From the NCBI GenBank assembly GCA_002742935.1, contig PDON01000043.1, positions 1 to 20,164 on the forward strand: a stretch of 20,164 nucleotides of DNA, in the 5' to 3' direction. Below the pieces are notes generated by a model. That model saw only the letters and a program-made list of their open reading frames with translations. It was not told the origin of the DNA and searched no databases. Below, in pieces: positions 4,074 to 20,038 of this stretch (positions within the stretch are counted from its first letter, which is position 1; every line of letters begins with the position of its first letter). A program made the position numbers and the translations under genes. This stretch comes from Candidatus Cloacimonadota bacterium. Its GTDB lineage: Bacteria > UBA4055.

Positions 4074-6725
4074 ATGAATTTTAGATATAAAGGTATATTA
4101 CCAAGTCAAGCTAAAAAATTGATAGTATATATTTTTTTAATCTTTGCTTTTTTTTCAGTTTTTTTTATAAGTGCAAATCTATATTTTTTTAATATCTCCC
4201 TTGATCTACACATAGAAAGAGTTGCTTCTATTCAATCTCAACTTGATATATCATCAATTATGCAGACTAAGTTTCAATCAACTTTGAATATTTTTTATGA
4301 GTTGAAAGATAGTAAAAATATTGATGAAGCTAATTTAAATAAAGGTAGACTCAATAAATTTATTAATGATTTTAATAAGGTTGCTTCTGTTTTAGAAAAT
4401 GGAGGAGTTTTTGATTACTTAGTTCCTTTAAGTTTTAATAATAAAATTGAATTTAGGGATAGAATAAGGTATAAAAAAAGATTTAGTAAAGAGTTTGATA
4501 TCCAACTTAAAGGTATTAAACCTCTTATTTCTCGAATAGAGCTTTTAATTGAACAGTTTTACCAACTAAAGATAGAGAGTTTAGAAAGCTCTGAAAAATT
4601 ACCTTTTGATTCTTTTTTTAAAAATCTAAATAATACTTTTATAGAGTTGGAAGAGAGTATAAACCATCTCTATTTTGAAGCGAAAGGTAATTTAGATAGC
4701 GAAAATAAAGATTTTTACGATAGTGAAAATTTTATTAAAAACTTCAATATAGTTTCCTTTTTTATTATTCTATTTCTCACCGCTCTTTTTATATTTATAA
4801 GTTTTAGAAAAGTTTTACATATTATATATGAAAAAGAGAGTGTGAAAAGGTTAAATGATAAACTTCTAAAAGCTGTAAACTGGGCTTCTTGTTCAATAAT
4901 TATAACGGATCAAAGTGGAAATATTGAGTATGTTAACCATGCTTTTGAGAAAAATAGCGGATATTTAGCAGAAAATGTATTGGGAAAAAGACCGTCTATT
5001 TTAAAAAGTGGTCATCACAAAAGCAGTTTTTACGAAGATTTATGGGATACAATTTCTAAAGGTAAGATTTGGAACTCCGTAATTTGTAATAAGAGAGCTG
5101 ATTCTACTCTTTTCCGTGAAAAAGTTTCTATTATTCCTATAATTAAAGAGGATAATAGTATAGATGGTTACATTGGTATAAAAGATGATATTACAGATGT
5201 ATTAGATCTTATCTCTAAGTTTGAAGATAGTAAAGCGATGGAGATGATTTTTGATAAGGCACCAATAGGAATAATGCTCATTAGTATGGATAAAAAAATT
5301 ATTAAAATGAACAATGAAGCTGCTTTAATTCTGAAATATGATAGCTTAGAGGAAGCTGAAAGATCTATGTACGGAAAATTATGCTTTGAGAATTTTTGCT
5401 CTGCTACCAAGGATAGTTGTCCTATAATTAATCTAAAAAAGAAGAGTGTTATTCTGGAAGAAAAATTAATGTGGACAAAGGATAGAAGTTTAACACCTGT
5501 ATTAAAAAGCGTCATACCTATTAAATATAATTCTAAAAATATTCTTCTTGAGATGTTTGTAGATATAAAGAGTATTAAAACAGTTGAGATGAAAGAGAGA
5601 AAATTAAGTAAAGCAAAAACTAATCTTCTAAACAACATTATTTATGAAGTTGAAATTTTTATGGATGAAGTTATAGAAAAAGTTGCTGCTTTAGAAAACA
5701 AAAAAGAAAATACTCATAAAAATAATCTACTTACCTCTATTGAAAATTCTAAGTCTAATCTTTTGAATTTTATTAATACTACTGTTGGTTTTTTAGATTT
5801 TGAGATTGAAAAAACGAAGGTTAAGGAGCATTCAATTGAGCTCGATTCTCTCATTTTTTCTATTGTAAAACAGTTTAAAGTTCCTGCTATGAAAAAATCT
5901 TTAGAACTGTTAGTTGATATATCTTACAATATTTTTAATTGTTATATATGTGATTCTATAATAATTGCCAATATCCTTATGAATTTAATTGATAATGCAA
6001 TAAAGTTTACAAAATCAGGTCAGGTTGTTACGAAAGTATCGCTAATTGACAGTAAGGATGATAGTGAAGTTTTAAAGTTTAGTATTGAAGACTCCGGTAT
6101 TGGTATAACTTCTGAGAATAGAGATAAGGTTTTTGAAGAGTTTATACAGTTGGATGAAAATAATAAAGAAAATTCTAAAGGTTCCGGCCTTGGTACAACC
6201 ATAGCTAAAAATTTAACAGAGCTGATAGGTGGAAGTATAGAGCTCCTTTCTCCTAACCCTAATTTGTATATATCTAAAGATCCCGGTTCAGTATTTTCTT
6301 TTAAACTTAAACTAAAAAAGGATAAGGTAAACAAAGAGATAACTAAGAACCCTATCCATTTGGAAAATTTATCTGTACTAATAATAGATGCAAATCAATT
6401 TTCTATTGAGATTCTTTATAATCTTTTGAGTAACCACTATACTGTTAGTGCTGAGATTAACCCTAAAAATATTGATAACTACTTTCATAAAATTAAAGAT
6501 TTGATAATTGTAGATGTTAACTCTTTGGAAAAATCTTTTAGTAAACTACAAGAGTTTAAAAAAATAGTACCGACAATAAAAATTGTACTCATTGGTCTTG
6601 ATTTGACTAATATTACTTCTAGTATGGAAGCAATAATTGATTTAAAATTAAAGAAACCAATAATGAAAAATTATCTGATTGACGGTATTTCAAATCTATT
6701 TCCGGATAAAGTTTTTTTTGAATAA
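4074..6725 (+). CDS. Membrane sensor hybrid histidine-kinase homolog with two TM segments, two PAS-like domains, HisKA-like and HATPase_c domains, and a C-terminal receiver-like domain. The H-box is atypical.
   Basis: TM segments lie at about aa 17-37 and 216-236. The PAS region includes NWASCSIIITDQSGNIEYVNHAF. The HATPase_c N-box is NLIDNAIKFT, G1 is IEDSGIGI and G2 is GSGLGTTIAKNL. The C-terminal REC-like region has VLIIDAN...IIVDVN...KLKKP. The H-box aligns as AKTNLLNNIIYEVEIF, which puts Tyr where the phospho-His is expected. Confidence 0.85.
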   Translation: MNFRYKGILPSQAKKLIVYIFLIFAFFSVFFISANLYFFNISLDLHIERVASIQSQLDISSIMQTKFQSTLNIFYELKDSKNIDEANLNKGRLNKFINDFNKVASVLENGGVFDYLVPLSFNNKIEFRDRIRYKKRFSKEFDIQLKGIKPLISRIELLIEQFYQLKIESLESSEKLPFDSFFKNLNNTFIELEESINHLYFEAKGNLDSENKDFYDSENFIKNFNIVSFFIILFLTALFIFISFRKVLHIIYEKESVKRLNDKLLKAVNWASCSIIITDQSGNIEYVNHAFEKNSGYLAENVLGKRPSILKSGHHKSSFYEDLWDTISKGKIWNSVICNKRADSTLFREKVSIIPIIKEDNSIDGYIGIKDDITDVLDLISKFEDSKAMEMIFDKAPIGIMLISMDKKIIKMNNEAALILKYDSLEEAERSMYGKLCFENFCSATKDSCPIINLKKKSVILEEKLMWTKDRSLTPVLKSVIPIKYNSKNILLEMFVDIKSIKTVEMKERKLSKAKTNLLNNIIYEVEIFMDEVIEKVAALENKKENTHKNNLLTSIENSKSNLLNFINTTVGFLDFEIEKTKVKEHSIELDSLIFSIVKQFKVPAMKKSLELLVDISYNIFNCYICDSIIIANILMNLIDNAIKFTKSGQVVTKVSLIDSKDDSEVLKFSIEDSGIGITSENRDKVFEEFIQLDENNKENSKGSGLGTTIAKNLTELIGGSIELLSPNPNLYISKDPGSVFSFKLKLKKDKVNKEITKNPIHLENLSVLIIDANQFSIEILYNLLSNHYTVSAEINPKNIDNYFHKIKDLIIVDVNSLEKSFSKLQEFKKIVPTIKIVLIGLDLTNITSSMEAIIDLKLKKPIMKNYLIDGISNLFPDKVFFE

Positions 6726-6802
6726 TACTCTTTTGTATATTTTTATTCTTAATTATTTTATGCAGATATACTTTTAAAGCTTTGTAAAAATACGGAGATT
6801 TA

Positions 6803-8278
6803 ATGAAAAACTATAAAGAGGTTGTATACGCTTTAAATGAGATTGGTATTGCTTTAAGTTTTCAAACCGATATAAATAAACTTCTTGTCATTATGGTGGA
6901 TAAGATAATTAATTTTATAAATTGTGATGCTTGTTCAATATTTTTGAGAGAAAGAGATCCTGACAGATTGTTTTTTAGGGTCAGTAAAACTATATCAATG
7001 AATGTTCAATCAATTAAAGATATACCTATACCTTTTTCTGAAGAGTCTATTGCCGGATACTCTGCGGTAAATAAGAAGCTGTTAAATATAGATGATTGTT
7101 ACAATCTAAAGAGTACTCTTCCTTATAAGTTTAATAGAAACTATGACAAAATTTCAGGATATAGGACTAAATCTATGCTTTGTGTACCTATAGTAGATAG
7201 AAATAAAGATCTTTTGGGGGTACTTCAAATAATAAATAAACTTAATGAAATAACAGGCGAGGTTGTATCTTTTGATAAAGAGTGTGAATTAATAGCTGAA
7301 TCTTTAGTTAGTCAAGCATCTATAGCAATTTCAAATTTTAACTTAATTGAAAAGAATAAAAATCTGTATAAAAGTTTAGTTGCATCATTTACTGAAGCTA
7401 TTGAAGCAAGAAGCCCCCATACAGCAGGACATTCAAGTAGAGTTAAACTCCTTTCAGTCCTCATTGCTAAAGCTATAAATAGAGTTAAATATGGAAAATT
7501 TAAAGATTTTAGTTTTAGTGATAGTCAAATTGAAGAGTTAAGTTTTTCGGCTATATTGCATGATGTAGGAAAGATCTCTATTCCTGAAAAAATTTTAGAA
7601 AAAGTAAATAAATTAACAGATGAAGAGATGAGAGCTATTGAGGAGAGATTTGAAGCTATACGACTCTCTATCTTGAAGTATGATGGCAATAATAGTGCAA
7701 AAGCTATTAGAGAAATAGATGAAGATTATAAATTTTTGAAGAGTAAATCTATTTCGGGAAAGCCTTTAACCAATGAGGAGATAGATAGGATTAAATATAT
7801 ATCAAAAAAAGAGTTTTCTCTTTCGAACGGTAAATATAAACTTTTTTTGAACAATGATGAGGTAACAAAACTTCTCATTAAAAACGGATCTTTTACAGTT
7901 GATGAGTATGAGATTATGAAAAAGCATGTGTTATATACACATGAAATTTTAAAAGAGATACCTTTTACAGATGAACTAAAAAATGTTTGTGAGTACGCTT
8001 CCAAACATCATGAGCTTTTAGATGGTAGCGGATATCCAAATAATTTAACAGAAAAAGCTATACCTTTACAATCAAGAATTTTAACAATAGCAGATATATT
8101 TGAAGCTCTTACAGCATTGGACAGACCTTATAAAGAATCTAAGCCAATTGATATCTCTTTAAAGATTTTATATGATCAAGTTTCAAAAGGTAAGTTGGAT
8201 AAAGATGTTTTTGATGTATTTGTTAAAGAAAGGGTTTATGAAGAGTATCTTAATAGTAGAGATATAAAAGAGGATTGA
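6803..8278 (+). CDS. GAF-domain HD-GYP phosphodiesterase (predicted c-di-GMP hydrolase).
   Basis: The HD motif is AILHDVGKI and the GYP motif is HHELLDGSGYP. The N-terminal ~190 aa are GAF-like. A GGAG RBS sits 5 nt before the ATG. Confidence 0.85.
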   Translation: MKNYKEVVYALNEIGIALSFQTDINKLLVIMVDKIINFINCDACSIFLRERDPDRLFFRVSKTISMNVQSIKDIPIPFSEESIAGYSAVNKKLLNIDDCYNLKSTLPYKFNRNYDKISGYRTKSMLCVPIVDRNKDLLGVLQIINKLNEITGEVVSFDKECELIAESLVSQASIAISNFNLIEKNKNLYKSLVASFTEAIEARSPHTAGHSSRVKLLSVLIAKAINRVKYGKFKDFSFSDSQIEELSFSAILHDVGKISIPEKILEKVNKLTDEEMRAIEERFEAIRLSILKYDGNNSAKAIREIDEDYKFLKSKSISGKPLTNEEIDRIKYISKKEFSLSNGKYKLFLNNDEVTKLLIKNGSFTVDEYEIMKKHVLYTHEILKEIPFTDELKNVCEYASKHHELLDGSGYPNNLTEKAIPLQSRILTIADIFEALTALDRPYKESKPIDISLKILYDQVSKGKLDKDVFDVFVKERVYEEYLNSRDIKED

Positions 8279-8347: not shown

Positions 8348-8446
8348 TAATATATTAGGTGGTTAAAAATATGCAATTATACTTTTGCTTTTTCTGACAC
8401 AGACTAATTTATAAATTAACTATCTTAATTAAATGTGGAGTTGTAT

Positions 8447-9571
8447 ATGAGGTTTTTAATCTTGTTTATTGTTGGTGTTACCATTTTTTCCTGTTCCTTA
8501 GGTAAAAAATCAGATGGTAATGTTGAAGTGGTGAAAAATGGAGTAAAACCTTTGGATCCAAATTTTAAAATTGATCTTGAGTATGTTGGAGAGATAAAAT
8601 CTGATGAAAAAAACTCATTTGGTCAAGCTTATGCTATTAGCATGGATTCAAAAGGGGATATCTATTTAACTGAGCAGTATAGAATGATCCACAAATATAA
8701 CGGCAAAGGTAACTTTATCAAGAACATTGGTAAAAATGGTGGAGGTCCCGGTGAATATTCATATCTTGTTACATCATTTGTCTCTATGGATACTGTCTAC
8801 GCTATAGATGCCGCTTCCCAGAAATGTATAAAGTATGATCTAGATGGTAACTATCTAAGTGATTTCCCTCTCAAAGGGTCATTTCCTGGAATGGTGTACA
8901 GTTCTAATGATAATCTTGTTGGGTTAGTTATCAAGAATGTTATGAATGAAAATAAGATTATGATGAGGTACTATCTCTCAATACTTAACAGGGATATAAG
9001 TTTTAAAGAGATTCTTTTTGAAGATAGTCTTTTCTTGGATCCAAATAATATGGGAGCTCTTATGGATATGGGTATGCTTGCAATGCTTGTAACTTTGGAT
9101 AAAGATGGATACTATATGGCTGAGAGTAGTGAGAACATATATAAGATAAACTACTATGATAAAGATGGAAATTTAACAAAGGAGATAACAAAAAACTACG
9201 CTAAGATACCATACTCCAAAAAAGAGATTGAGCTTACCAACAAAGTTATTGGCGAAATGTTTAAGAAGGCTCTAACCCCTCAATTGGCAGAGAGTATGAA
9301 GTTTGACAAGAAGTATAAAAGAGCTATTAACGATATAAAGTCAGATCATCTAAACAGATTATGGGTTAATGGTGGAAACAAAGATATTCAAACCTTTGAC
9401 TTCCCTTTAAAATATGATATTTTTAAGGATGGTAAGTTTATAAATAGTGTACCTCTAATGGATGGCGACAATCCTATTCTTATGACAGGACAAACATTTA
9501 TTTTAGGTGATAGACTCTTTGTTAACGATATGAAAAACAGTAAGGTTAAAATGTATAAAATATTAAATTAA
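8447..9571 (+). CDS. Lipoprotein, beta-propeller/NHL-like (BF3164-type GxGPGE motif).
   Basis: The lipoprotein signal is MRFLILFIVGVTIFSC. The motif is SKGDIYLTEQ...GKNGGGPGEY. I prefer the ATG at 8447, which has a GGAG RBS at 8437-8440, over the GTG at 8435 given in the ORF track. The protein is a paralog of the one encoded at 17243-18322. Confidence 0.75.
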   Translation: MRFLILFIVGVTIFSCSLGKKSDGNVEVVKNGVKPLDPNFKIDLEYVGEIKSDEKNSFGQAYAISMDSKGDIYLTEQYRMIHKYNGKGNFIKNIGKNGGGPGEYSYLVTSFVSMDTVYAIDAASQKCIKYDLDGNYLSDFPLKGSFPGMVYSSNDNLVGLVIKNVMNENKIMMRYYLSILNRDISFKEILFEDSLFLDPNNMGALMDMGMLAMLVTLDKDGYYMAESSENIYKINYYDKDGNLTKEITKNYAKIPYSKKEIELTNKVIGEMFKKALTPQLAESMKFDKKYKRAINDIKSDHLNRLWVNGGNKDIQTFDFPLKYDIFKDGKFINSVPLMDGDNPILMTGQTFILGDRLFVNDMKNSKVKMYKILN

Positions 9572-10619: not shown

Positions 10620-12440
10620 TTAAGAATAAGTTAAACTTTGTGATTCCTCCAGTGGAACAGGAGGTTTACCGATTTTAATTATTTTCATCTTTTTCATAAT
10701 AAATATAGCATTTTTATTTTTACATATTCCATTTTTTAATTTATAATCAAATATCAATTCATTATCAACTATCTTTGACTCAAAGCATTTATTGAATAAT
10801 CTGTTAGGATAATCATTTGCTATTTTACAAATTTCTAAATCGTGAGTAGCAATAATACCTATGGCATTTTTATTTATAAGATTCTCAATTATCTTGATTG
10901 TACCTGCTTTTTTATCATCTGAGTTAGTTCCTCTTAAAATCTCATCAAGAATTACAAAACATTTAGATACTTTTAAATTATCTATAATTTCTCTCAACCG
11001 CCTGATTTCAGCATAAAAATACGATTCTTTTCTATCTAATGAATCTGTCTGACGCATTGAAACAACTATTTTTAAAGGATTGATATTTGCTTTAGTTGCA
11101 CAAACGCAAGACCCTATTCCAGCCAAAAGCATATTTATTCCTAAAGTTCTTAAAAATGTACTTTTACCAGACATATTGGAACCTGTTAAAATAATTAAAT
11201 TATTATTATTAAAGCTGATTGAATTACAAATTCGTACATTTCTATTAACAAGAGGGTGTCCTAAGTTCTCAACATCAATACGATTTTCATTATTCAATAA
11301 AGGAAACACGAATTTAGGGTTATTATATGAAAAATTTGCCAAACTATTTAACATTTCAAATTCACCTATAACACTTAACCATTTTTCTATTTCTCTACAA
11401 TGATTTTGTTTCCATTTCAAAAGAGAGTTTAATGCATGCAAATGAAACAAAAATATTCCATTTAAAAATAAAAAAGCCATCCCATTTTGAACACTTTCAA
11501 TATTTGAAAATAACATAGAAAGTGTCTTTATTTTCCTACTTGCTGAATTAGAGTTATCAGAAAGTTTTGTTTGTAATTCACTAAGTCTACTACTTTTAAA
11601 TTGTTTTTTCTCTATTTCCGATAAAATATCTCCATACTTGTTAATTATTTCAGAAACTTTATCCACCTCTAATAGATTTTTTTTTACTTCTTTAATCTTA
11701 CAAGAAGCAATGATTAGATTAATAATGAAAATTGAAGTTGTTATCGATATATACGAAGGATTGTAGATAGTAGCAATAATAGAAAACACAAATATTATCG
11801 GCAAAATATAAATTAGAATATTTAATAATTTTGAGAATTGTTTTTCTTTTTTCTTTGACCAAGAAATTAAGTTTTCGTAATTTGATTTGCTGTCTTTATT
11901 TATTTTAGCAATAGCCATTAACTTTTGTCGCCATTCAATTTCTTTTGTCAATTCTTGAACTGCCTGTTGATTTAGTTTTATTTCATTTTCAGGAAGTTTT
12001 TCTAACAATAAATTAGATAAGTATTTATACCCTACGTAAGTTGATGTTCTATTTATATTTTGAAATAACGAATTTTCTCCAAAAATATCTAAATCATAAG
12101 TGTATATATGTTTATGGTCAATAAATTCTTTTCCGTTCTCAAAAGGTATGGTTATTCCATCTAAATATGATATTTCATCTGAATTTATAGATATGATATT
12201 CTTATTAAATAATTTTTCCCAAGATATAGTATTATGTATTTTAATTAACACCAAGAAAATAAAAAATAGTAAAACACTACAAACTTCAAAAATATGATGT
12301 TCTGTAAAAAATGGATTATATATGCAAAAAACAAATAGTATTACAACCAACAACCGAATTACGCTTATTGTATTATATCTCTTTTTTAATTTATTGTAAT
12401 TTTCTAAATGTTTTTCTTTTGCTTTCTTATAGTATGTCAT
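10620..12440 (-). CDS. Membrane-anchored MutS-related protein: multi-TM N-terminal region and a MutS domain V ABC-ATPase C-terminal region, with no Smr domain and no mismatch-binding domain.
   Basis: Walker A is LTGSNMSGKSTFLRT and Walker B is CFVILDEILRGTN, followed by IIATHD. Hydrophobic segments include LLVVILFVFCIY and LLFFIFLVLI. Confidence 0.8.
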   Translation of the reverse strand: MTYYKKAKEKHLENYNKLKKRYNTISVIRLLVVILFVFCIYNPFFTEHHIFEVCSVLLFFIFLVLIKIHNTISWEKLFNKNIISINSDEISYLDGITIPFENGKEFIDHKHIYTYDLDIFGENSLFQNINRTSTYVGYKYLSNLLLEKLPENEIKLNQQAVQELTKEIEWRQKLMAIAKINKDSKSNYENLISWSKKKEKQFSKLLNILIYILPIIFVFSIIATIYNPSYISITTSIFIINLIIASCKIKEVKKNLLEVDKVSEIINKYGDILSEIEKKQFKSSRLSELQTKLSDNSNSASRKIKTLSMLFSNIESVQNGMAFLFLNGIFLFHLHALNSLLKWKQNHCREIEKWLSVIGEFEMLNSLANFSYNNPKFVFPLLNNENRIDVENLGHPLVNRNVRICNSISFNNNNLIILTGSNMSGKSTFLRTLGINMLLAGIGSCVCATKANINPLKIVVSMRQTDSLDRKESYFYAEIRRLREIIDNLKVSKCFVILDEILRGTNSDDKKAGTIKIIENLINKNAIGIIATHDLEICKIANDYPNRLFNKCFESKIVDNELIFDYKLKNGICKNKNAIFIMKKMKIIKIGKPPVPLEESQSLTYS

Positions 12441-13295: not shown

Positions 13296-15488
13296 CTATT
13301 CAATAGTAACCTGATCTAAAAATAACCACATAATTGGAATATTAAGATCTTTTGCTACCTCTTCTCGATTAAATGAGTTAGCTTTAACCCTAATATATCT
13401 GGCTTTAAAATCTCCGAATACAGAGTACTCCTTAATAGATTTGCCCTCTTTACTACTATAGTTGCTATTATCGCTGTATACTGTTTCATAATTTAGATTA
13501 TCTGAAGAGATACTTATCTCCAACTTTTTTGGAAGAAAGATATGCACCTCTTTCCTTTCAAGTAGATTTAAGTTAACCTTACTAAAGTTTACAATCTCTT
13601 CTAAATCTATATAGAGATTAATACCCTCTTCAAACCCTTGCCAACCTTCGCTAGTGTGATCTAAACCTCCATAAACACCATCACTTAAACCATATTCAAA
13701 AGTTGAAGGATATTTATGGCTAAAAGGCTTATTGTAATAGCTCCTCTTTCCAAAACCCTTATGACTACTTATCACTAAAGTTTGATCCTTACCTATCTGC
13801 TTCCCATTTAGTAGTTGTCTTGCTACAAATTTTACAGAACTCTCAATCTCAATAGGTTTTTCATAAAGCTTAAACTCTCCACCCATTGAGTAGTAGATCT
13901 CAGAACCTATAATCTCAGAATCAACGGTGATTAAATATCTTCCATCTATAAATTTTCTGGTTATATCCAATACTGTTGAACCGGTTCCATGATTATATCC
14001 TAAACTATCCAAAATCTTATACTGATACGGTAATTTAGCCTTAAATTTTTCCCAACACTTATCCTCACTGCTACACCAAGCTGTCTCAGAAAGAGCAACT
14101 AATCTCGGAAGTAACATATATTCAGCATGAGATTCAGTTGGAACCCACTCTGTCCAAAGGCACCCTTCCGTTCCAAGTATAAAATCTTTCTCTTTACCTT
14201 CTAGTTTAGAAGGTATAGGGTTATAGCTATAGACCCTTTTTATAGGACTATATCCACCAAAAGCTCTTGCTTCACTTCCCTCATCACTCTGATAATGATC
14301 AAAATATAGATGTGAATTAGGTACCATTACAGCCCTGTTACCATTTTTACAAGCCTCAATTCCACCATCCTCATTCTGCCAAGAAAAAACAATAGCATTT
14401 GGAGCTAATCCACCCTCTAAAATTTCATCCCAACCCAATAGATCCTTTCCTCTACTATTGAGAAACTTCTCTATCCTCTTTATGAAGTAACTTTGAAGCT
14501 CCTTACTATCCTTTAAACCGTGCTCTTCCATTCTCTTTTTACACAATGGACACTTATCCCAATTGGTTTTGCAAGCTTCATCACCACCAATGTGAAAATA
14601 TTTTGAAGGGAAAAGAGGTATAACCTCATCTAAAACATTTTCAATAAAGGTAAAAACCTCCTCTTTACCACCACAGAAAATATCATCGTTTGGCCAGTAT
14701 GACCCTGTTGGAACAGTAACCTTTTGATTAAAACAACCAAGCTCCGGATAAGCAGCTATAACCTCAACACTATGACCCGGCATCTCTATTTCAGGAATAA
14801 TCTCAATAGATCTATCCTTTGCATACTCAACTATCTCTCTAATTTCATCTTGGGTATAGTAACCACCGTAACTTCTCTCTTCCCCCTCCTTCTCCTCTTC
14901 ACGAGAGAGCCAGCTACCGGTTCTAGGAGCTCTCCACGCAGAGATCTCTTGAAGTTTAGGATATTTTTTTATCTCAACTCTCCAACCATTATCATCTGTT
15001 AGATGCCAGTGAAAACTATTTAATTTATAAAATGCTAATATATCAATATATTTCTTAATAAAATCAGCTTTAAAAAAGTGTCTGCTCACATCTAAGTGCA
15101 TACCTCTATAACCAAGGCTAGGCTTATCCTCAATATATATCTTTTTAAGCTTTAGCTCTTCTCTATCAGAGTCAAAAATAGATTCATCAAACAATTGTAT
15201 TAGGGATAGCAGACCATAAAGAAACCCCTTCTCCTCTTTGGATTTTATAGTAATACTCTCATCTATATCCAAAATATAGGACTCATGGGAAAGAGAGCTA
15301 TTGAGTTCTAGATCTATCTTAAACTTACTATCCCTTTTAAAACCAATATTAAACTTAGAGTAAAGATCTTTTATAAAGGTACTAAATTTATAGTTTTCAA
15401 AATTTTCTATATATATCGAAAGGTTTTTGGGAAGTTTAATAAAACCTTCTCTTTTGCTAATTTTATATGGTTTAGGCACAATATTCAT
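13296..15488 (-). CDS. GH20 beta-N-acetylhexosaminidase with a C-terminal discoidin-like (F5/8 type C) domain and no signal peptide.
   Basis: The GH20 catalytic motif is HIGGDE (YFHIGGDEACK). It has GH20b-like N-terminal and TIM-barrel regions and a C-terminal ...ARYIRVKA... segment. The N-terminus MNIVPKPYKISKREG is not hydrophobic. Confidence 0.9.
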   Translation of the reverse strand: MNIVPKPYKISKREGFIKLPKNLSIYIENFENYKFSTFIKDLYSKFNIGFKRDSKFKIDLELNSSLSHESYILDIDESITIKSKEEKGFLYGLLSLIQLFDESIFDSDREELKLKKIYIEDKPSLGYRGMHLDVSRHFFKADFIKKYIDILAFYKLNSFHWHLTDDNGWRVEIKKYPKLQEISAWRAPRTGSWLSREEEKEGEERSYGGYYTQDEIREIVEYAKDRSIEIIPEIEMPGHSVEVIAAYPELGCFNQKVTVPTGSYWPNDDIFCGGKEEVFTFIENVLDEVIPLFPSKYFHIGGDEACKTNWDKCPLCKKRMEEHGLKDSKELQSYFIKRIEKFLNSRGKDLLGWDEILEGGLAPNAIVFSWQNEDGGIEACKNGNRAVMVPNSHLYFDHYQSDEGSEARAFGGYSPIKRVYSYNPIPSKLEGKEKDFILGTEGCLWTEWVPTESHAEYMLLPRLVALSETAWCSSEDKCWEKFKAKLPYQYKILDSLGYNHGTGSTVLDITRKFIDGRYLITVDSEIIGSEIYYSMGGEFKLYEKPIEIESSVKFVARQLLNGKQIGKDQTLVISSHKGFGKRSYYNKPFSHKYPSTFEYGLSDGVYGGLDHTSEGWQGFEEGINLYIDLEEIVNFSKVNLNLLERKEVHIFLPKKLEISISSDNLNYETVYSDNSNYSSKEGKSIKEYSVFGDFKARYIRVKANSFNREEVAKDLNIPIMWLFLDQVTIE

Positions 15489-15651: not shown

Positions 15652-17181
15652 ATGAAACTACCAATCGGAATACAAACATTTAGTAAAATTCGTGAAGATG
15701 ATTATGTATACATAGACAAAACTAAAGAAGCACTAGAGTTAATAGAACAATATCAATACATATTTCTTTCTCGTCCTCGAAGATTTGGGAAATCTCTATT
15801 TTTAGATACCTTGAAATCTATTTTTGAAGGCAATAAAGAATATTTTAGGGGCTTATATATTGAGGATAGATACGATTTTAATCAAAAATTTCCTGTAATT
15901 CATATTAGTTTTGCCGGAAACCTTTCAACAAAAGAGGGTATAGATGGAGTTTTTAACTATATTCTAAAAAAAAATATTGAAGCTCTAAAGGTAAATATTG
16001 ATAATGATTTAGATATTCCCAACAAACTATCAGAACTAATTCAAAAAACCTATGAAAAGTATAACCAAAAAGTTGTCGTTTTAGTTGATGAGTACGACAA
16101 ACCTATCTTAGATAATATTACAGAACCAATAATGAGGGAATATGCAAATAAGAGCTTAAAAGCTTTTTATGAAATATTAAAAAGATCGGATAAATATCTA
16201 AAGTTTGTATTCTTAACCGGAGTAAGTAAGTTTTCAAAAGTTTCCATTTTTTCAGGATTAAATAATCTAAAGGATATATCTTTAGAGGAGAAGTTTGGTA
16301 ATATTTGTGGCTATACCCATGAAGATATAGAAACAAATTTTAATCCATTATTACAAGGTGTTGATTTAGAGAAGTTAAAAGAGTGGTATAATGGGTATTA
16401 CTTCTTAAAAGATAAGGTTTATAACCCTTTTGATATTTTGCTATTTATCAGTGAAAATTTCACTTATAAGAACTATTGGTTTGAAACAGGGAACCCTTCA
16501 TTTTTAATTGAGCTTATCAAAAAGAACAACTACTATCTACCAAATCTTGAAAATATAGTTGTTGGAGAGGAGATTTTAAACTCTTTTGATGTCGAAAATA
16601 TCAATTTAGAAACACTGCTTTTTCAAACAGGGTATTTGACTATAAAAAAGAGGTTTGAAAAGAGAAATAAAATAAAATTCTCTTTAAAAATTCCAAACTT
16701 AGAAGTAAAAGTTTCTCTAAACTCTGCAGTTTTAAATAAACTTGTAAGCAATATATCTCAAAAAGAGAAGAATCAAGATGATGCTTATGACTCCCTATTT
16801 GATGCAAAACTAGAGGATTTTAAAACTAGTTTAATCTCACTATTCGCTTCGTTACCATATCAAAATTATGTTAAAAACAATATAAATATCTATGAAGGGT
16901 TTTATGCTAGTGTAATCTACTCCTATCTTGCTTCTCTTGGATTCCCCATAAGCGTAGAGGAGAGTACAAATATGGGTAGGTTGGATATGAGTCTTCTTGT
17001 AAATAATCACAGATATATTTTTGAGTTTAAGGTTGGTAATGAAAATGCTCTTTCCCAAATTAAATACAACAGATACTATGAAAAGTTTATCAGTGAGAAT
17101 AGCGATATATATTTAGTGGGAATAAATTTTGATGAAGAGAAGAAAAATATAAGAAGTTTTGAGTGGGAAAAATTTAGATAG
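15652..17181 (+). CDS. pfam09820-type AAA-ATPase fused to a PD-(D/E)XK nuclease domain (copy 1).
   Basis: Walker A is RPRRFGKSLFLDT and Walker B is VVVLVDEYDKP. The C-terminal nuclease motifs are GRLDMSLL and IFEFKVG (D...E-x-K). Confidence 0.85.
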   Translation: MKLPIGIQTFSKIREDDYVYIDKTKEALELIEQYQYIFLSRPRRFGKSLFLDTLKSIFEGNKEYFRGLYIEDRYDFNQKFPVIHISFAGNLSTKEGIDGVFNYILKKNIEALKVNIDNDLDIPNKLSELIQKTYEKYNQKVVVLVDEYDKPILDNITEPIMREYANKSLKAFYEILKRSDKYLKFVFLTGVSKFSKVSIFSGLNNLKDISLEEKFGNICGYTHEDIETNFNPLLQGVDLEKLKEWYNGYYFLKDKVYNPFDILLFISENFTYKNYWFETGNPSFLIELIKKNNYYLPNLENIVVGEEILNSFDVENINLETLLFQTGYLTIKKRFEKRNKIKFSLKIPNLEVKVSLNSAVLNKLVSNISQKEKNQDDAYDSLFDAKLEDFKTSLISLFASLPYQNYVKNNINIYEGFYASVIYSYLASLGFPISVEESTNMGRLDMSLLVNNHRYIFEFKVGNENALSQIKYNRYYEKFISENSDIYLVGINFDEEKKNIRSFEWEKFR

Positions 17182-17242: not shown

Positions 17243-18322
17243 ATGAAATCATTAAATTTTTTTATCATAGTTTTACTTTGTCTACTCTCTCTTAGTTGTT
17301 CTAAAAAGAGAGAAATTAAACTTAATCTTCCTCAGAAAACAAGAGATTATAAGATTATTCATAACAAAAATCAGCCTTTGGATAAAGATTTTTATTATAA
17401 AACAGAGAAACTGTTTACAATCAATAGTGAAAATTCTAACCCATATATTAGCTTCCCTTTGTCGTTTGATGTTGATTCCAAAGGGGATATTTTCATTTTG
17501 GATAGTAGAGAGTCCATTATCTATAAATATAATAGAGATGGTAAATTTCTTAAAAAATTTGGTAAAAAGGGTCAAGGTCCAGGGGAAACAGTCGATCCTA
17601 GTTTTTTGTGTATAATTAATGATACAATCTATTACGGTGGAGTTAGAACCCAAAATATTGTTATCTGTTCAAATGAGGGAGAGTTTATCAAAAAAATAGA
17701 ACTACCTATTCGAAATGGTAACCCTGAGTTTACTACTAGATTTAATAATGATAAGATTATCTCTCAAATATTCTCTATTGAAAAATCGGAAGGTAAAACG
17801 AGGATTAGAGTTGCTGTTTTTGATAAAGAGTTTCAGCTTAAAAACCTACTCAGTGATGTGAGTTTTGAGATGGGAGGTCTCCCTAACTCTTTAACACCTT
17901 TTACCTGTTCAGAGGATAAAATTTATGTGGCTCACAATAGTGACAATGAATATGCTATCGATATTTATAACAGGTATGGAGAATTAGAGACTACTATAAA
18001 AAAGAATTATCATAAAATAGAGTTTAATGATATAGATTTTGGTAAAAAAATTAAGAGTAAGCTTACCAAAAAGTCTATAGTTGGAATGTTTTATGATAAA
18101 AAAAGATCCTTACTACTTGTGAAAAGATCTTTTAAGAGAGATGAAAATAATAGAAATAGATTTTTAGTTGATGTTTTCAAGGATAATAAGTTTATCAATA
18201 CCGTCGACTTGGATATAGGTAAAAGTCGTGATTTTTTCAATCCTCTGTTGCAGGTTAAAATTATAGGGGATAGAATTTATGTTAAAAATCAAGATTTATC
18301 TGTATATAAAATAAAAGATTAG
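17243..18322 (+). CDS. Lipoprotein, beta-propeller/NHL-like paralog of the protein encoded at 8447-9571.
   Basis: The signal and lipobox are MKSLNFFIIVLLCLLSLSC. The motif SKGDIFILDSRESIIYKYNRDGKFLKKFGKKGQGPGE parallels the first lipoprotein. Confidence 0.75.
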   Translation: MKSLNFFIIVLLCLLSLSCSKKREIKLNLPQKTRDYKIIHNKNQPLDKDFYYKTEKLFTINSENSNPYISFPLSFDVDSKGDIFILDSRESIIYKYNRDGKFLKKFGKKGQGPGETVDPSFLCIINDTIYYGGVRTQNIVICSNEGEFIKKIELPIRNGNPEFTTRFNNDKIISQIFSIEKSEGKTRIRVAVFDKEFQLKNLLSDVSFEMGGLPNSLTPFTCSEDKIYVAHNSDNEYAIDIYNRYGELETTIKKNYHKIEFNDIDFGKKIKSKLTKKSIVGMFYDKKRSLLLVKRSFKRDENNRNRFLVDVFKDNKFINTVDLDIGKSRDFFNPLLQVKIIGDRIYVKNQDLSVYKIKD

Positions 18323-18430: not shown

Positions 18431-20038
18431 GAATCATATTTATCATTTCATTTTCAAATCAAAATTGATTATAATATAAGGTAAGGGTATATCACATAAG
18501 GAGAGAGTATGAAATTACCAATTGGAATACAGACATTTAGTGAAATTCGTGAAGATGACTATATCTATATGGATAAAACTAAAGAAGCACTGGAGCTAAT
18601 AGAACAATATAAATATATATTTCTTTCTCGTCCTCGAAGATTTGGGAAATCTCTATTTTTAGATACTTTAAAATCTATTTTTGAAGGCAAGAAAGAGTAT
18701 TTTAAGGGCTTATATATTGAGGATAGATACGATTTCAATCAAAAATTTCCTGTAATTCATATCAGTTTTTCCGGAGATTTACAAACAGATGATGGCTTAA
18801 AACAAACCTTTCAAAGAATATTTAGAGCGAACCAAGAATCTTTGGATATTTCTTGTCCAAAGGATTTTAATTTTGAAAGTTGCCTTGTTCACTTAATAAG
18901 AGAAGCTTATAAAAAATATAACCAAAAAGTTGTTGTTTTAATTGATGAATATGATAAACCAATTTTAGATAATATAGGTAATAATGAAGTTTTAAAAAGG
19001 AGAAGAGAACAACTAAAAAGTTTTTATGGCGTATTAAAAGATAACGATAAATATCTAAGATTTGTATTCTTAACAGGAGTAAGTAAGTTTTCAAAAGTTT
19101 CTATTTTTTCAGGATTAAACAATCTTGAGGATATAACTTTAAGTAGCAATTTTGGAAATATCTGTGGTTATACACATAATGATATAGAGACAACTTTTAA
19201 ACCATTATTAGAAGGTGTTGATTTAGAGAAGTTAAAACATTGGTATAATGGGTACTACTTTTTGAAGGATAAGGTTTATAATCCTTTTGATATTCTACTC
19301 TTTATAAGAGGTAATTTCAGCTATAAAAACTATTGGTTTGAAACAGGGAACCCTTCATTTTTAATTGAGCTTATCAAAAAGAACAACTACTATCTTCCAA
19401 ACCTTGAAAATATAGTTGTTGGAGAGGAGATTTTAAACTCTTTTGATCTTGAAGATATCAACTTAGAAACACTACTTTTTCAAACAGGGTACTTAACTAT
19501 AAAAAAGAGGTTTGAAAAGAGAAATAAAATTAAATTCTCTTTAAAAGTTCCAAACTTAGAAGTAAGAGTTTCTCTAAACTCTGTAGTTTTAAATAAACTT
19601 GTAAGCAATATATCTCAAAAAGAGAAGAATCAAGATGATGCTTATGATTCTCTATTTGATGCAAAGCTAGAAGATTTTAAAACGAGTTTAATCTCTCTAT
19701 TCGCTTCTCTTCCTTACCAAAACTATGTTAAAAACAATATAAATGTTTACGAAGGTTTTTATTCTAGTGTAATCTACTCCTACCTCGCTTCTCTTGGATT
19801 CCCTATAAGTGTAGAGGAGAGTACAAATATGGGAAGATTGGATATGAGTTTACTTGTAAACAATCACAGATATATTTTTGAGTTTAAGGTTGGTAATGAA
19901 AATGCTCTTGCTCAAATTAAAGAGAGTAGATATTATGAAAAATTTCTTAGTGAGAATAGCGATATATATCTAGTTGGGATAAATTTTGATGAAGAGAAAA
20001 AAAATATAAGTAGTTTTGAATGGGAAAAGTTTAGATAA
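18431..20038 (+). repeat. Direct repeat copy 2 (leader plus ATPase-nuclease gene).
   Basis: See copy 1. Similarity is highest across the C-terminal half of the gene and the leader. Confidence 0.9.
18509..20038 (+). CDS. pfam09820-type AAA-ATPase fused to a PD-(D/E)XK nuclease domain (copy 2).
   Basis: It is the same length as copy 1 (509 aa). The N-terminal 87 aa and the C-terminal ~330 aa are nearly identical to copy 1; two internal segments diverge strongly. Its stop lies 27 bp before the right TIR. Confidence 0.85.
   Translation: MKLPIGIQTFSEIREDDYIYMDKTKEALELIEQYKYIFLSRPRRFGKSLFLDTLKSIFEGKKEYFKGLYIEDRYDFNQKFPVIHISFSGDLQTDDGLKQTFQRIFRANQESLDISCPKDFNFESCLVHLIREAYKKYNQKVVVLIDEYDKPILDNIGNNEVLKRRREQLKSFYGVLKDNDKYLRFVFLTGVSKFSKVSIFSGLNNLEDITLSSNFGNICGYTHNDIETTFKPLLEGVDLEKLKHWYNGYYFLKDKVYNPFDILLFIRGNFSYKNYWFETGNPSFLIELIKKNNYYLPNLENIVVGEEILNSFDLEDINLETLLFQTGYLTIKKRFEKRNKIKFSLKVPNLEVRVSLNSVVLNKLVSNISQKEKNQDDAYDSLFDAKLEDFKTSLISLFASLPYQNYVKNNINVYEGFYSSVIYSYLASLGFPISVEESTNMGRLDMSLLVNNHRYIFEFKVGNENALAQIKESRYYEKFLSENSDIYLVGINFDEEKKNISSFEWEKFR

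Follow-up and report, generated by a model that had tools for sequence, protein, structure and literature searches.

A contig of 20,164 bp from a metagenome-assembled genome (MAG) of Candidatus Cloacimonadota (GC about 24-39%; this whole stretch is referred to here as the window) contains an open reading frame (ORF) of 883 codons whose product, listed at NCBI as MAG hypothetical protein CR982_04125, is probably a maintained pseudo hybrid histidine kinase: a protein that is dead in phosphotransfer and signals by contact with other proteins, perhaps with the GAF-HD-GYP enzyme encoded by the neighbouring gene. A first-pass annotation of this DNA had described it as a hybrid kinase homologue with tyrosine in place of the phospho-acceptor histidine. 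The alignments presented below confirm the tyrosine and show that the protein has, in addition, a remodelled DHp domain and no second receiver domain (REC2), in a family whose other members are canonical in both respects.

Tyrosine in the phospho-acceptor column

Four alignment routes (phmmer against the PDB, a profile of some 60 homologues, two MAFFT alignments and a profile of the DHp domain only) all place Tyr524 in the phospho-His column, so that the tyrosine first proposed for this site is found there by every method applied. In the phmmer search KAKTNLLNNIIYEVEIFMD of the query was aligned without gaps on RIKSEFLANMSHEIRTPLN of GacS (7z8n, E 3.8e-25) and on KTEFIANISHELRTPL of HK853. The homologue profile scores 184.8 bits over residues 502-877, aligned in one piece, and sets Tyr524 against its His; in both MAFFT alignments column 524 is a nearly invariant His at which the query has Tyr. 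The same register was obtained with the DHp-only profile, which scored 17.0 bits for the query and 22.5 bits for an in-silico Y524H version of it.

The residues around the acceptor are also altered. The H-box SHEIRTP reads IYEVEIF in the query, the longer family form ANMSHE[IL]RTP being NNIIYEVEIF, and the flanking R-T-P is indeed lost, as had been annotated, through the changes R527E, T528I and P529F. The motif of the second DHp helix (alpha2), LINDILDFSKIEAGK, has become FINTTVGFLDFEIEK. E525 of the E/DxxT/N phosphatase motif is retained, with an Ile now in place of T528, and the motif is thereby broken. No match of the ORF to Pfam HisKA (PF00512) was found, even at E<=1.

Other histidines of this region were considered as acceptors. 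The first-pass annotation had named the His of ENTHKNN (H548) as an example of a residue that might fit the acceptor column better than Tyr524; the DHp profile did not place it there, even with the H-box cut away, and kept the same register. In the structural model H548 sits at the alpha1-alpha2 hairpin, and its aligned column is variable in relatives, being mostly Glu or Asp. H586 was ruled out in the same way, since the register of the DHp profile was unchanged without the H-box. Nor does AT-bias explain the altered H-box: SHE[IL]RTP is kept by the relatives P0121, P0125 and P0126, whose content of Lys, Asn and Ile looks by eye about as high.

A family of otherwise canonical kinases

A word-indexed search gave no match between 100% and 28% identity to the query, and a profile of the N-terminal half (A3) run against the word-indexed database returned generic PAS proteins only and did not recover the family. 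Relatives were found by an exhaustive search of 1.84 billion cluster representatives; they are colinear and full-length, at only 25-35% identity. Examples of phmmer alignments that run in single stretches are those to two relatives (P0121, E 7e-127, residues 16-808 against 15-789; P0122, E 1e-121, residues 6-875 against 6-888). Fourteen relatives align through the sensor, both PAS domains, DHp and CA, and 11 of these also through the first receiver domain (REC1), which P0139, P0143 and P0149 do not have. From these alignments the family, which has no name (P0121, P0122, P0123 and others), is best described as a group of substrate-binding protein (SBP)-associated PAS/Cys-PAS hybrid kinases with the order transmembrane (TM) helix, helical sensor, TM helix, PAS, Cys-PAS, HisKA, HATPase, REC1 and REC2.

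All 14 colinear relatives (914-1263 amino acids) have ANMSHE[IL]RTP and a canonical C-terminal REC2, and some end in an Hpt-like tail. The acceptor His is kept by each of the 213 other HisKA-bearing homologues retrieved, and [SG]HE[IL]RTP by all 19 genome-encoded relatives examined among those that share the PAS2 signature. It had been proposed to look for Tyr in orthologues from related genomes; no relative above 35% identity was found, and all 213 homologues have His. On these alignments the query stands as the lone member without an acceptor His in a colinear family of hybrid kinases. The pattern [NED][IV]LLE[AMT]F[MV]D, with which PAS2 closes, retrieved 65 genome loci. The lineages to which these PAS2-module loci (L004-L068, from MAGs and other genomes) belong are for the most part uncultured (Desulfobacterota, Planctomycetota, Omnitrophota and Aegiribacteria).

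Loss is concentrated in the DHp domain

Conservation was scored domain by domain, an invariant position being a column at least 90% identical among the other family members, with each member scored by leave-one-out. The query retains 7 of 9 invariants in the sensor, 14 of 18 in PAS1, all 8 in PAS2 and 25 of 33 in CA, so that the PAS and CA invariants are kept at 76-100%, as against 12 of 33 (36%) in DHp. Every other member retains 31-33 of its 33-37 scored DHp positions. The 21 family-invariant DHp residues replaced in the query include those of the H-box and of the alpha2 motif.

The ATP-binding domain was recognised by Pfam HATPase_c (PF02518) with 73.9 bits against a cut-off of 26.4. Its N box (N637, N641), G1 box (D673xGxG677), F box (F687, F690) and G2 box (G703xGLG707) are all present; the first three of these to be annotated, N, G1 and G2, are therefore intact as claimed, and so is the F box. 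What had been overlooked is a set of substitutions in the ATP lid (S696N, T697N, R699E, G702K and T704S), where the CA losses cluster. Taken together, the claim that this is not a canonical His autokinase agrees with what is seen: the features are those of a pseudokinase in which the nucleotide-binding domain is preserved and the receiver is a pseudo-receiver.

The pseudo-receiver and the missing REC2

No match of the ORF to Pfam Response_reg (PF00072) was found, even at E<=1, and the receiver matches of the C-terminal domain in the PDB are weak (E 0.0025). AlphaFold nevertheless predicts a (beta-alpha)5 fold for residues 765-877 (predicted local distance difference test, pLDDT, 78-93), with strands at 767-771, 790-794, 810-814, 836-841 and 857-860 and helices at 775-786, 797-803, 815-831, 849-852 and 865-875. 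The active-site quintet is incomplete: D814 and K861-P862 are present, the second acid is lost (D772-A773) and there is no Ser/Thr at the end of beta4. The annotated features of this domain, a phospho-Asp and Lys that are kept and D-A instead of D-D, are thus those observed.

The degeneracy of this receiver had been presented as a mark of the protein, and it is confirmed as degeneracy but is not peculiar to the query. By alignment the domain corresponds to the family's variable REC1, which is degenerate to differing degrees in relatives; P0121 has no acceptor Asp, and degeneracy is seen also in P0125, P0126 and P0153. In the query REC1 is the last domain. The canonical C-terminal REC2 of its relatives is absent, and no remnant of it was found anywhere in the window (tblastn, nothing below E 0.2). 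It is this absence, not noticed in the first-pass annotation, that is the really distinctive loss.

A reading frame probably under selection

There are no stops inside the 883-codon frame, compared with 25-152 in each of the other five frames. The DNA is 26% GC, a stop would be expected about every 11 codons, and the probability of 883 stop-free codons arising by chance at this composition is about 2e-38. Because 21 invariant DHp positions have changed, which marks the change as old, and yet no stop has been acquired, the frame appears to have been maintained under selection; an unconstrained frame would not be expected to last so long, nor would the PAS and CA domains be expected to be spared. 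The DNA of the pseudokinase is 100% identical in three contigs from other assemblies, two from NCBI and one from Logan.

Domain layout and structural model

The domains of the protein, the gene that follows and the binding-protein genes of related loci are collected in Table 1. The AlphaFold model was built from a 45-sequence alignment and has a mean pLDDT of 74.8; the sensor domain is helical in it, but at low pLDDT. Foldseek matched the model to HK853 (TM-score 0.8), GacS, RetS and full-length ShkA. Matches to the NCBIfam models TorS, BarA, LuxQ and ArcB are partial and far below threshold; they fall within residues about 384-875, most of them beginning near 510. A Cys triad lies in PAS2 (window 5382-5423, residues 437-450), where CHNNYC-x6-CPI of the relatives is replaced by CFENFCSATKDSCPI, which has no His; the triad may be a metal or redox site.

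Table 1. Features of the pseudokinase gene and its surroundings. Positions are those of the window, except for the SBP_bac_11 genes, whose positions are those of the locus named.
Feature	Position	Strand	Basis or remark
Whole ORF, pseudo hybrid histidine kinase, 883 aa (probable)	4074..6725	+	intact, no internal stop
TM1, about aa 14-38	4113..4187	+	hydropathy windows; helix in AlphaFold model
Extracytoplasmic helical sensor, about aa 39-222	4188..4739	+	colinear with family; alignment invariants G110, G111, E194
TM2, about aa 223-248	4740..4817	+	hydropathy
PAS1, aa 263-380	4860..5213	+	Pfam PAS_9 at 273-375, E 2.2e-20; pLDDT 89-97
PAS2, aa 381-505	5214..5588	+	Pfam PAS_8 (from 390); Cys triad C437/C443/C449-P450; signature NILLEMFVD
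Degenerate DHp helical hairpin, aa 506-585	5589..5828	+	profiles and model; helices 498-542 and 546-577
Codon TAT, Tyr524, in phospho-acceptor His column	5643..5645	+	alignments
CA/HATPase_c, aa 586-750	5829..6323	+	Pfam HATPase_c 73.9 bits (627-748); pLDDT 86-97
Pseudo-receiver, aa 765-877, homologous to family REC1	6366..6704	+	alignment and AlphaFold fold; no REC2 after
77-bp spacer	6726..6802	+	GGAG ahead of next ATG; no terminator-like site on + strand
GAF-HD-GYP phosphodiesterase, 491 aa, PmGH-like	6803..8278	+	Pfam GAF, HD_5 (PF13487, 124.7 bits); candidate partner
SBP_bac_11 gene, locus L004	6671-7504		
SBP_bac_11 gene, locus L005	7186-7947		
SBP_bac_11 gene, locus L069	5264-6001		
SBP_bac_11 gene, locus L070	1317-2150		
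SBP_bac_11 gene, locus L071	1740-2528		
SBP_bac_11 gene, locus L072	1686-2456		
SBP_bac_11 gene, locus L075	4110-4889		

Neighbouring genes

The gene that follows the pseudokinase had been annotated as encoding a GAF-HD-GYP enzyme 77 bp downstream, and it does carry GAF and HD_5 domains. Its translation contains the motifs HDVGK and HHELLDGSGYP, and its best PDB match is PmGH (4mcw, E 1.1e-42), which extends across both domains. Relative to 4mcw there is an insertion of about 80 amino acids between the HD and GYP halves (window 7631-7870, residues 277-356). This insertion partly echoes the helix that flanks it (KLTDEEMRAIEERF compared with SFTVDEYEIMKKHV), which hints at an internal duplication.

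In two family loci, L004 and L075, a gene for a receiver joined to HD_5 (REC-HD-GYP) overlaps or directly follows the kinase gene, and the same position is taken by such a gene in L008, L009, L010, L021 and L028, five more loosely related loci with the PAS2 module in common. The neighbourhood of kinase and HD-GYP gene therefore recurs in the lineage. The first-pass suggestion that the sensor feeds the HD-GYP enzyme gains from this recurring neighbour, but the window enzyme is of the GAF type and has not been established as an orthologue of the REC-HD-GYP partners.

Directly upstream of the kinase, and often abutting it, there is an SBP_bac_11 gene in seven of the eight true family loci, L073 being the one without. 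Together with the membrane sensor this arrangement, which we take to recall TorT/TorS, suggests by analogy that the family consists of binding-protein-dependent sensors, as TorT/TorS or LuxP/LuxQ may be compared. The genes upstream of the pseudokinase in the window encode an ABC ATPase and two BPD_transp_2 permeases, with no SBP_bac_11 gene among them, and no remnant of such a gene was found in the window (tblastn, nothing below E 0.2). Pfam recognises nothing in L001, the 5' fragment that precedes the ABC transporter genes.

Several further features of the contig were observed. Two paralogues with AAA-ATPase_like and PDDEXK_9 domains, at 15652-17181 and 18509-20038, share 87-91% DNA identity over their aligned parts, and two genes for six-bladed beta-propellers of the DUF5128 type lie at 8435-9571 and 17243-18322. 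A GH20 beta-hexosaminidase gene (13296-15488, minus strand) coincides with a GC content of 0.385 at 14-15 kb, compared with 0.24-0.35 in the rest of the contig, and this excess may reflect horizontal acquisition or strong codon constraint. A 606-amino acid protein (10620-12440, minus strand) has only the ATPase of MutS domain V and a weak match to domain III, and its N-terminus weakly matches EcsB, a protein of ABC transporters; possibly it is MutS2-like, of an atypical form.

Discussion

The protein is, on its sequence, incapable of His-to-Asp transfer and of HisKA-type phosphatase activity, since it has no acceptor His and no phosphatase Thr/Asn, its REC2 is gone and the acidic pocket of its REC1 is incomplete. 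What is left to it we infer from the domains it keeps: it still senses a signal, possibly binds nucleotide, and passes on a conformational change by protein-protein contact. The ancestor would have been a hybrid kinase of the SBP-associated PAS/Cys-PAS family, several relatives in which are followed by an RpfG-type REC-HD-GYP regulator. In the Cloacimonadota lineage the phosphorelay has been dismantled, with His changed to Tyr, the phosphatase Thr to Ile and the receiver-docking surface of alpha1/alpha2 rewritten; REC2 is deleted, which leaves a REC1 without its second metal-binding Asp and Thr/Ser. Conservation persists in the sensor, in PAS1 and PAS2 and in the nucleotide-binding core. The signal would still be sensed, and the conformational output would most plausibly be delivered to the co-oriented GAF-HD-GYP enzyme encoded 77 bp downstream, so that turnover of cyclic diguanylate (c-di-GMP) or a related dinucleotide would be controlled without phosphorylation. 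A further and unlikely extension of this scheme is that both halves of a former relay of kinase and RpfG-type regulator gave up their phospho-sites in concert, the kinase its His, docking surface and REC2, the HD-GYP enzyme having GAF in the place of the REC of relatives, and that the two now act without phosphorylation, by direct allosteric contact; the ShkA-like pseudo-receiver might then sense the dinucleotide being degraded and close a feedback loop.

Several points weigh against a maintained pseudokinase that acts on its neighbour. The changes in the ATP lid, R699E among them, leave nucleotide binding uncertain as far as can be judged from the residues. Among about 15 billion proteins no orthologue exceeds 35% identity, which precludes any reading of Tyr524 conservation or of the ratio of nonsynonymous to synonymous substitution rates (dN/dS), and the three contigs retrieved with this gene match the window at 100%, which leaves no population variation to read. 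Only two of the eight true family loci have an HD-GYP partner. The window enzyme and the REC-HD-GYP partners are 31-37% identical, a figure that must be read beside a similarity to PmGH of the same order and that does not establish orthology. A functional link to the HD-GYP enzyme would be drawn from adjacency and from synteny in relatives. Furthermore, the partner search covered the 20-kb window.

Other explanations of the protein were weighed against this reading. The dead kinase could be a modulator in the manner of RetS, forming a heteromer with a canonical kinase encoded elsewhere in the genome and blocking or tuning that kinase, with no action on the HD-GYP enzyme. The core is of the GacS/BarA/TorS type and matches RetS (6dk7, E 1.8e-12 by phmmer against the PDB) as well as GacS, the helical hairpin is retained, and multikinase networks are established, as cited in PMC12148439 and PMC12632262. 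No candidate kinase partner is encoded within the 20-kb window, however, and the DHp domain has diverged from the family consensus, so that pairing with a family paralogue is not obviously favoured; we regard this explanation as fairly unlikely. Somewhat less likely still is a decaying relic, whose function would have been lost with the His and REC2 and which would be drifting toward a pseudogene. The query is a singleton with no close orthologue, several phosphorelay elements are gone, the SBP_bac_11 gene present beside seven of eight family members is absent and the ATP lid is altered, all as a relic might be; yet the frame is free of stops throughout in DNA of 26% GC where every other frame has many, and drift without constraint would have struck the PAS and CA domains too, instead of leaving DHp alone with little more than a third of its invariants.

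The dead DHp-CA core could also bind a phosphorylated response regulator and report back through PAS, as a phospho-sensor of the DivL type. Tyr at the acceptor, PAS domains upstream and CA motifs in place all have their precedent in DivL (PMC4211667). In the query, on the other hand, R, T, P and the alpha2 motif are replaced, whereas DivL keeps the rest of its H-box and its docking surface (PMC4211667); there is no stand-alone receiver gene in the window, and DivL itself is a marginal match in sequence (E 1.1e-3). The lack of a conserved docking surface makes phospho-sensing of this kind less likely, and we consider it distinctly improbable. It is more doubtful again that the CA domain phosphorylates Tyr524 itself. 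A Tyr-autophosphorylating kinase would make sense of the retained N, G1, F and G2 boxes and of E525 beside the acceptor, but it would have to act with an ATP lid carrying R699E and to pass phosphate on with REC2 absent, REC1 degenerate and no downstream acceptor, and DivL, with its own Tyr, shows no autokinase activity in vitro (PMC4211667). Finally, a His-to-Tyr change needs only a single C-to-T substitution, and a sequencing or assembly error of CAT to TAT in a normal kinase could in principle produce it. This is scarcely credible, for 20 other invariant DHp positions are changed, REC2 is missing, and the same DNA recurs unchanged in two assemblies from NCBI and in an independent one from Logan.

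If the pseudokinase is functional, it would be a sensor kinase in which the input and ATP-binding domains have remained under selection while every element of phosphotransfer was removed. With canonical relatives for comparison and a plausible output enzyme adjacent, it would offer a convenient system for the study of signalling by pseudo-histidine kinases. It is a single sequence from a MAG, and as such adds a case and leaves the general picture unchanged.

Comparison with known systems

Pseudo-histidine kinases are a class already known, to which the query adds one singleton case and not a new kind of system. The statement that Tyr in place of His would be unusual outside the Alphaproteobacteria was overstated: among 76,471 HisKA domains sampled, 722 (about 0.9%) have no His (PMC12632262), and PsmA, a hybrid pseudo-histidine kinase of Streptomyces, is variable at this position and has Tyr in S. 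scabies (PMC12963549).

The description of the protein as DivL-like holds for the acceptor and fails for its surroundings. DivL of Caulobacter crescentus (PDB 4q20) likewise has Tyr for the acceptor His and PAS upstream, and in both proteins kinase and phosphatase activity would be expected to be absent and signalling to proceed by protein contacts; the essential functions of DivL are independent of a phosphorylated DHp (PMC4211667). DivL, however, retains the H, N, G1, F and G2 motifs in every other respect, together with a conserved regulator-docking surface, and R553, P555 and T557 of its H-box are kept (PMC4211667), whereas the query has 21 of 33 DHp invariants replaced. DivL has no receiver; the query has a remodelled DHp, an attached pseudo-receiver and a core of the GacS/TorS type, and matches DivL 4q20 at 21.6 bits (E 1.1e-3) against 3.8e-25 for GacS 7z8n. 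The resemblance is convergent and not a matter of orthology.

PsmA shares with the query a hybrid architecture with PAS, the absence of an acceptor His and the loss of the E/DxxT/N phosphatase motif. It is conserved in Streptomycetaceae and binds DivIVA at hyphal tips (PMC12963549), whereas the query is a singleton membrane sensor of another family and phylum, the two being set apart here by their descriptions. ShkA of Caulobacter (PDB 6qrj) has the same order of DHp, CA and pseudo-receiver, and the query's family has the full DHp-CA-REC1-REC2; the Foldseek alignment to ShkA extends over 362 columns. Rec1 of ShkA also has an incomplete acidic pocket with the Asp kept, and it binds c-di-GMP on its alpha4-beta5-alpha5 face via R324, Y338, R344, S347 and Q351 (PMC6969517). 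The beta5 segment of the query, LKLKKPIMKNY, shows by eye, and not by alignment, no obvious match to these residues. ShkA differs further from the query: it has both His and Rec2, is active as a kinase and has no N-terminal sensor.

The nearest kinase cores are those of GacS, BarA and TorS; besides the GacS match in the PDB there are the partial NCBIfam matches to TorS and BarA (1e-43 to 1e-38). The query nevertheless scores 147 bits against an equivalog cut-off of 676 for TorS, and it has no acceptor His, no REC2, no Hpt and no upstream binding-protein gene in the window. RpfC/RpfG differ in turn, in that the window enzyme has GAF where the partners have REC and the query kinase is unable to phosphorylate. 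The likeness to RpfC/RpfG lies in the arrangement of the genes: relatives of the query are followed by a REC-HD-GYP gene, and the HD-GYP gene of the window stands in the equivalent position.

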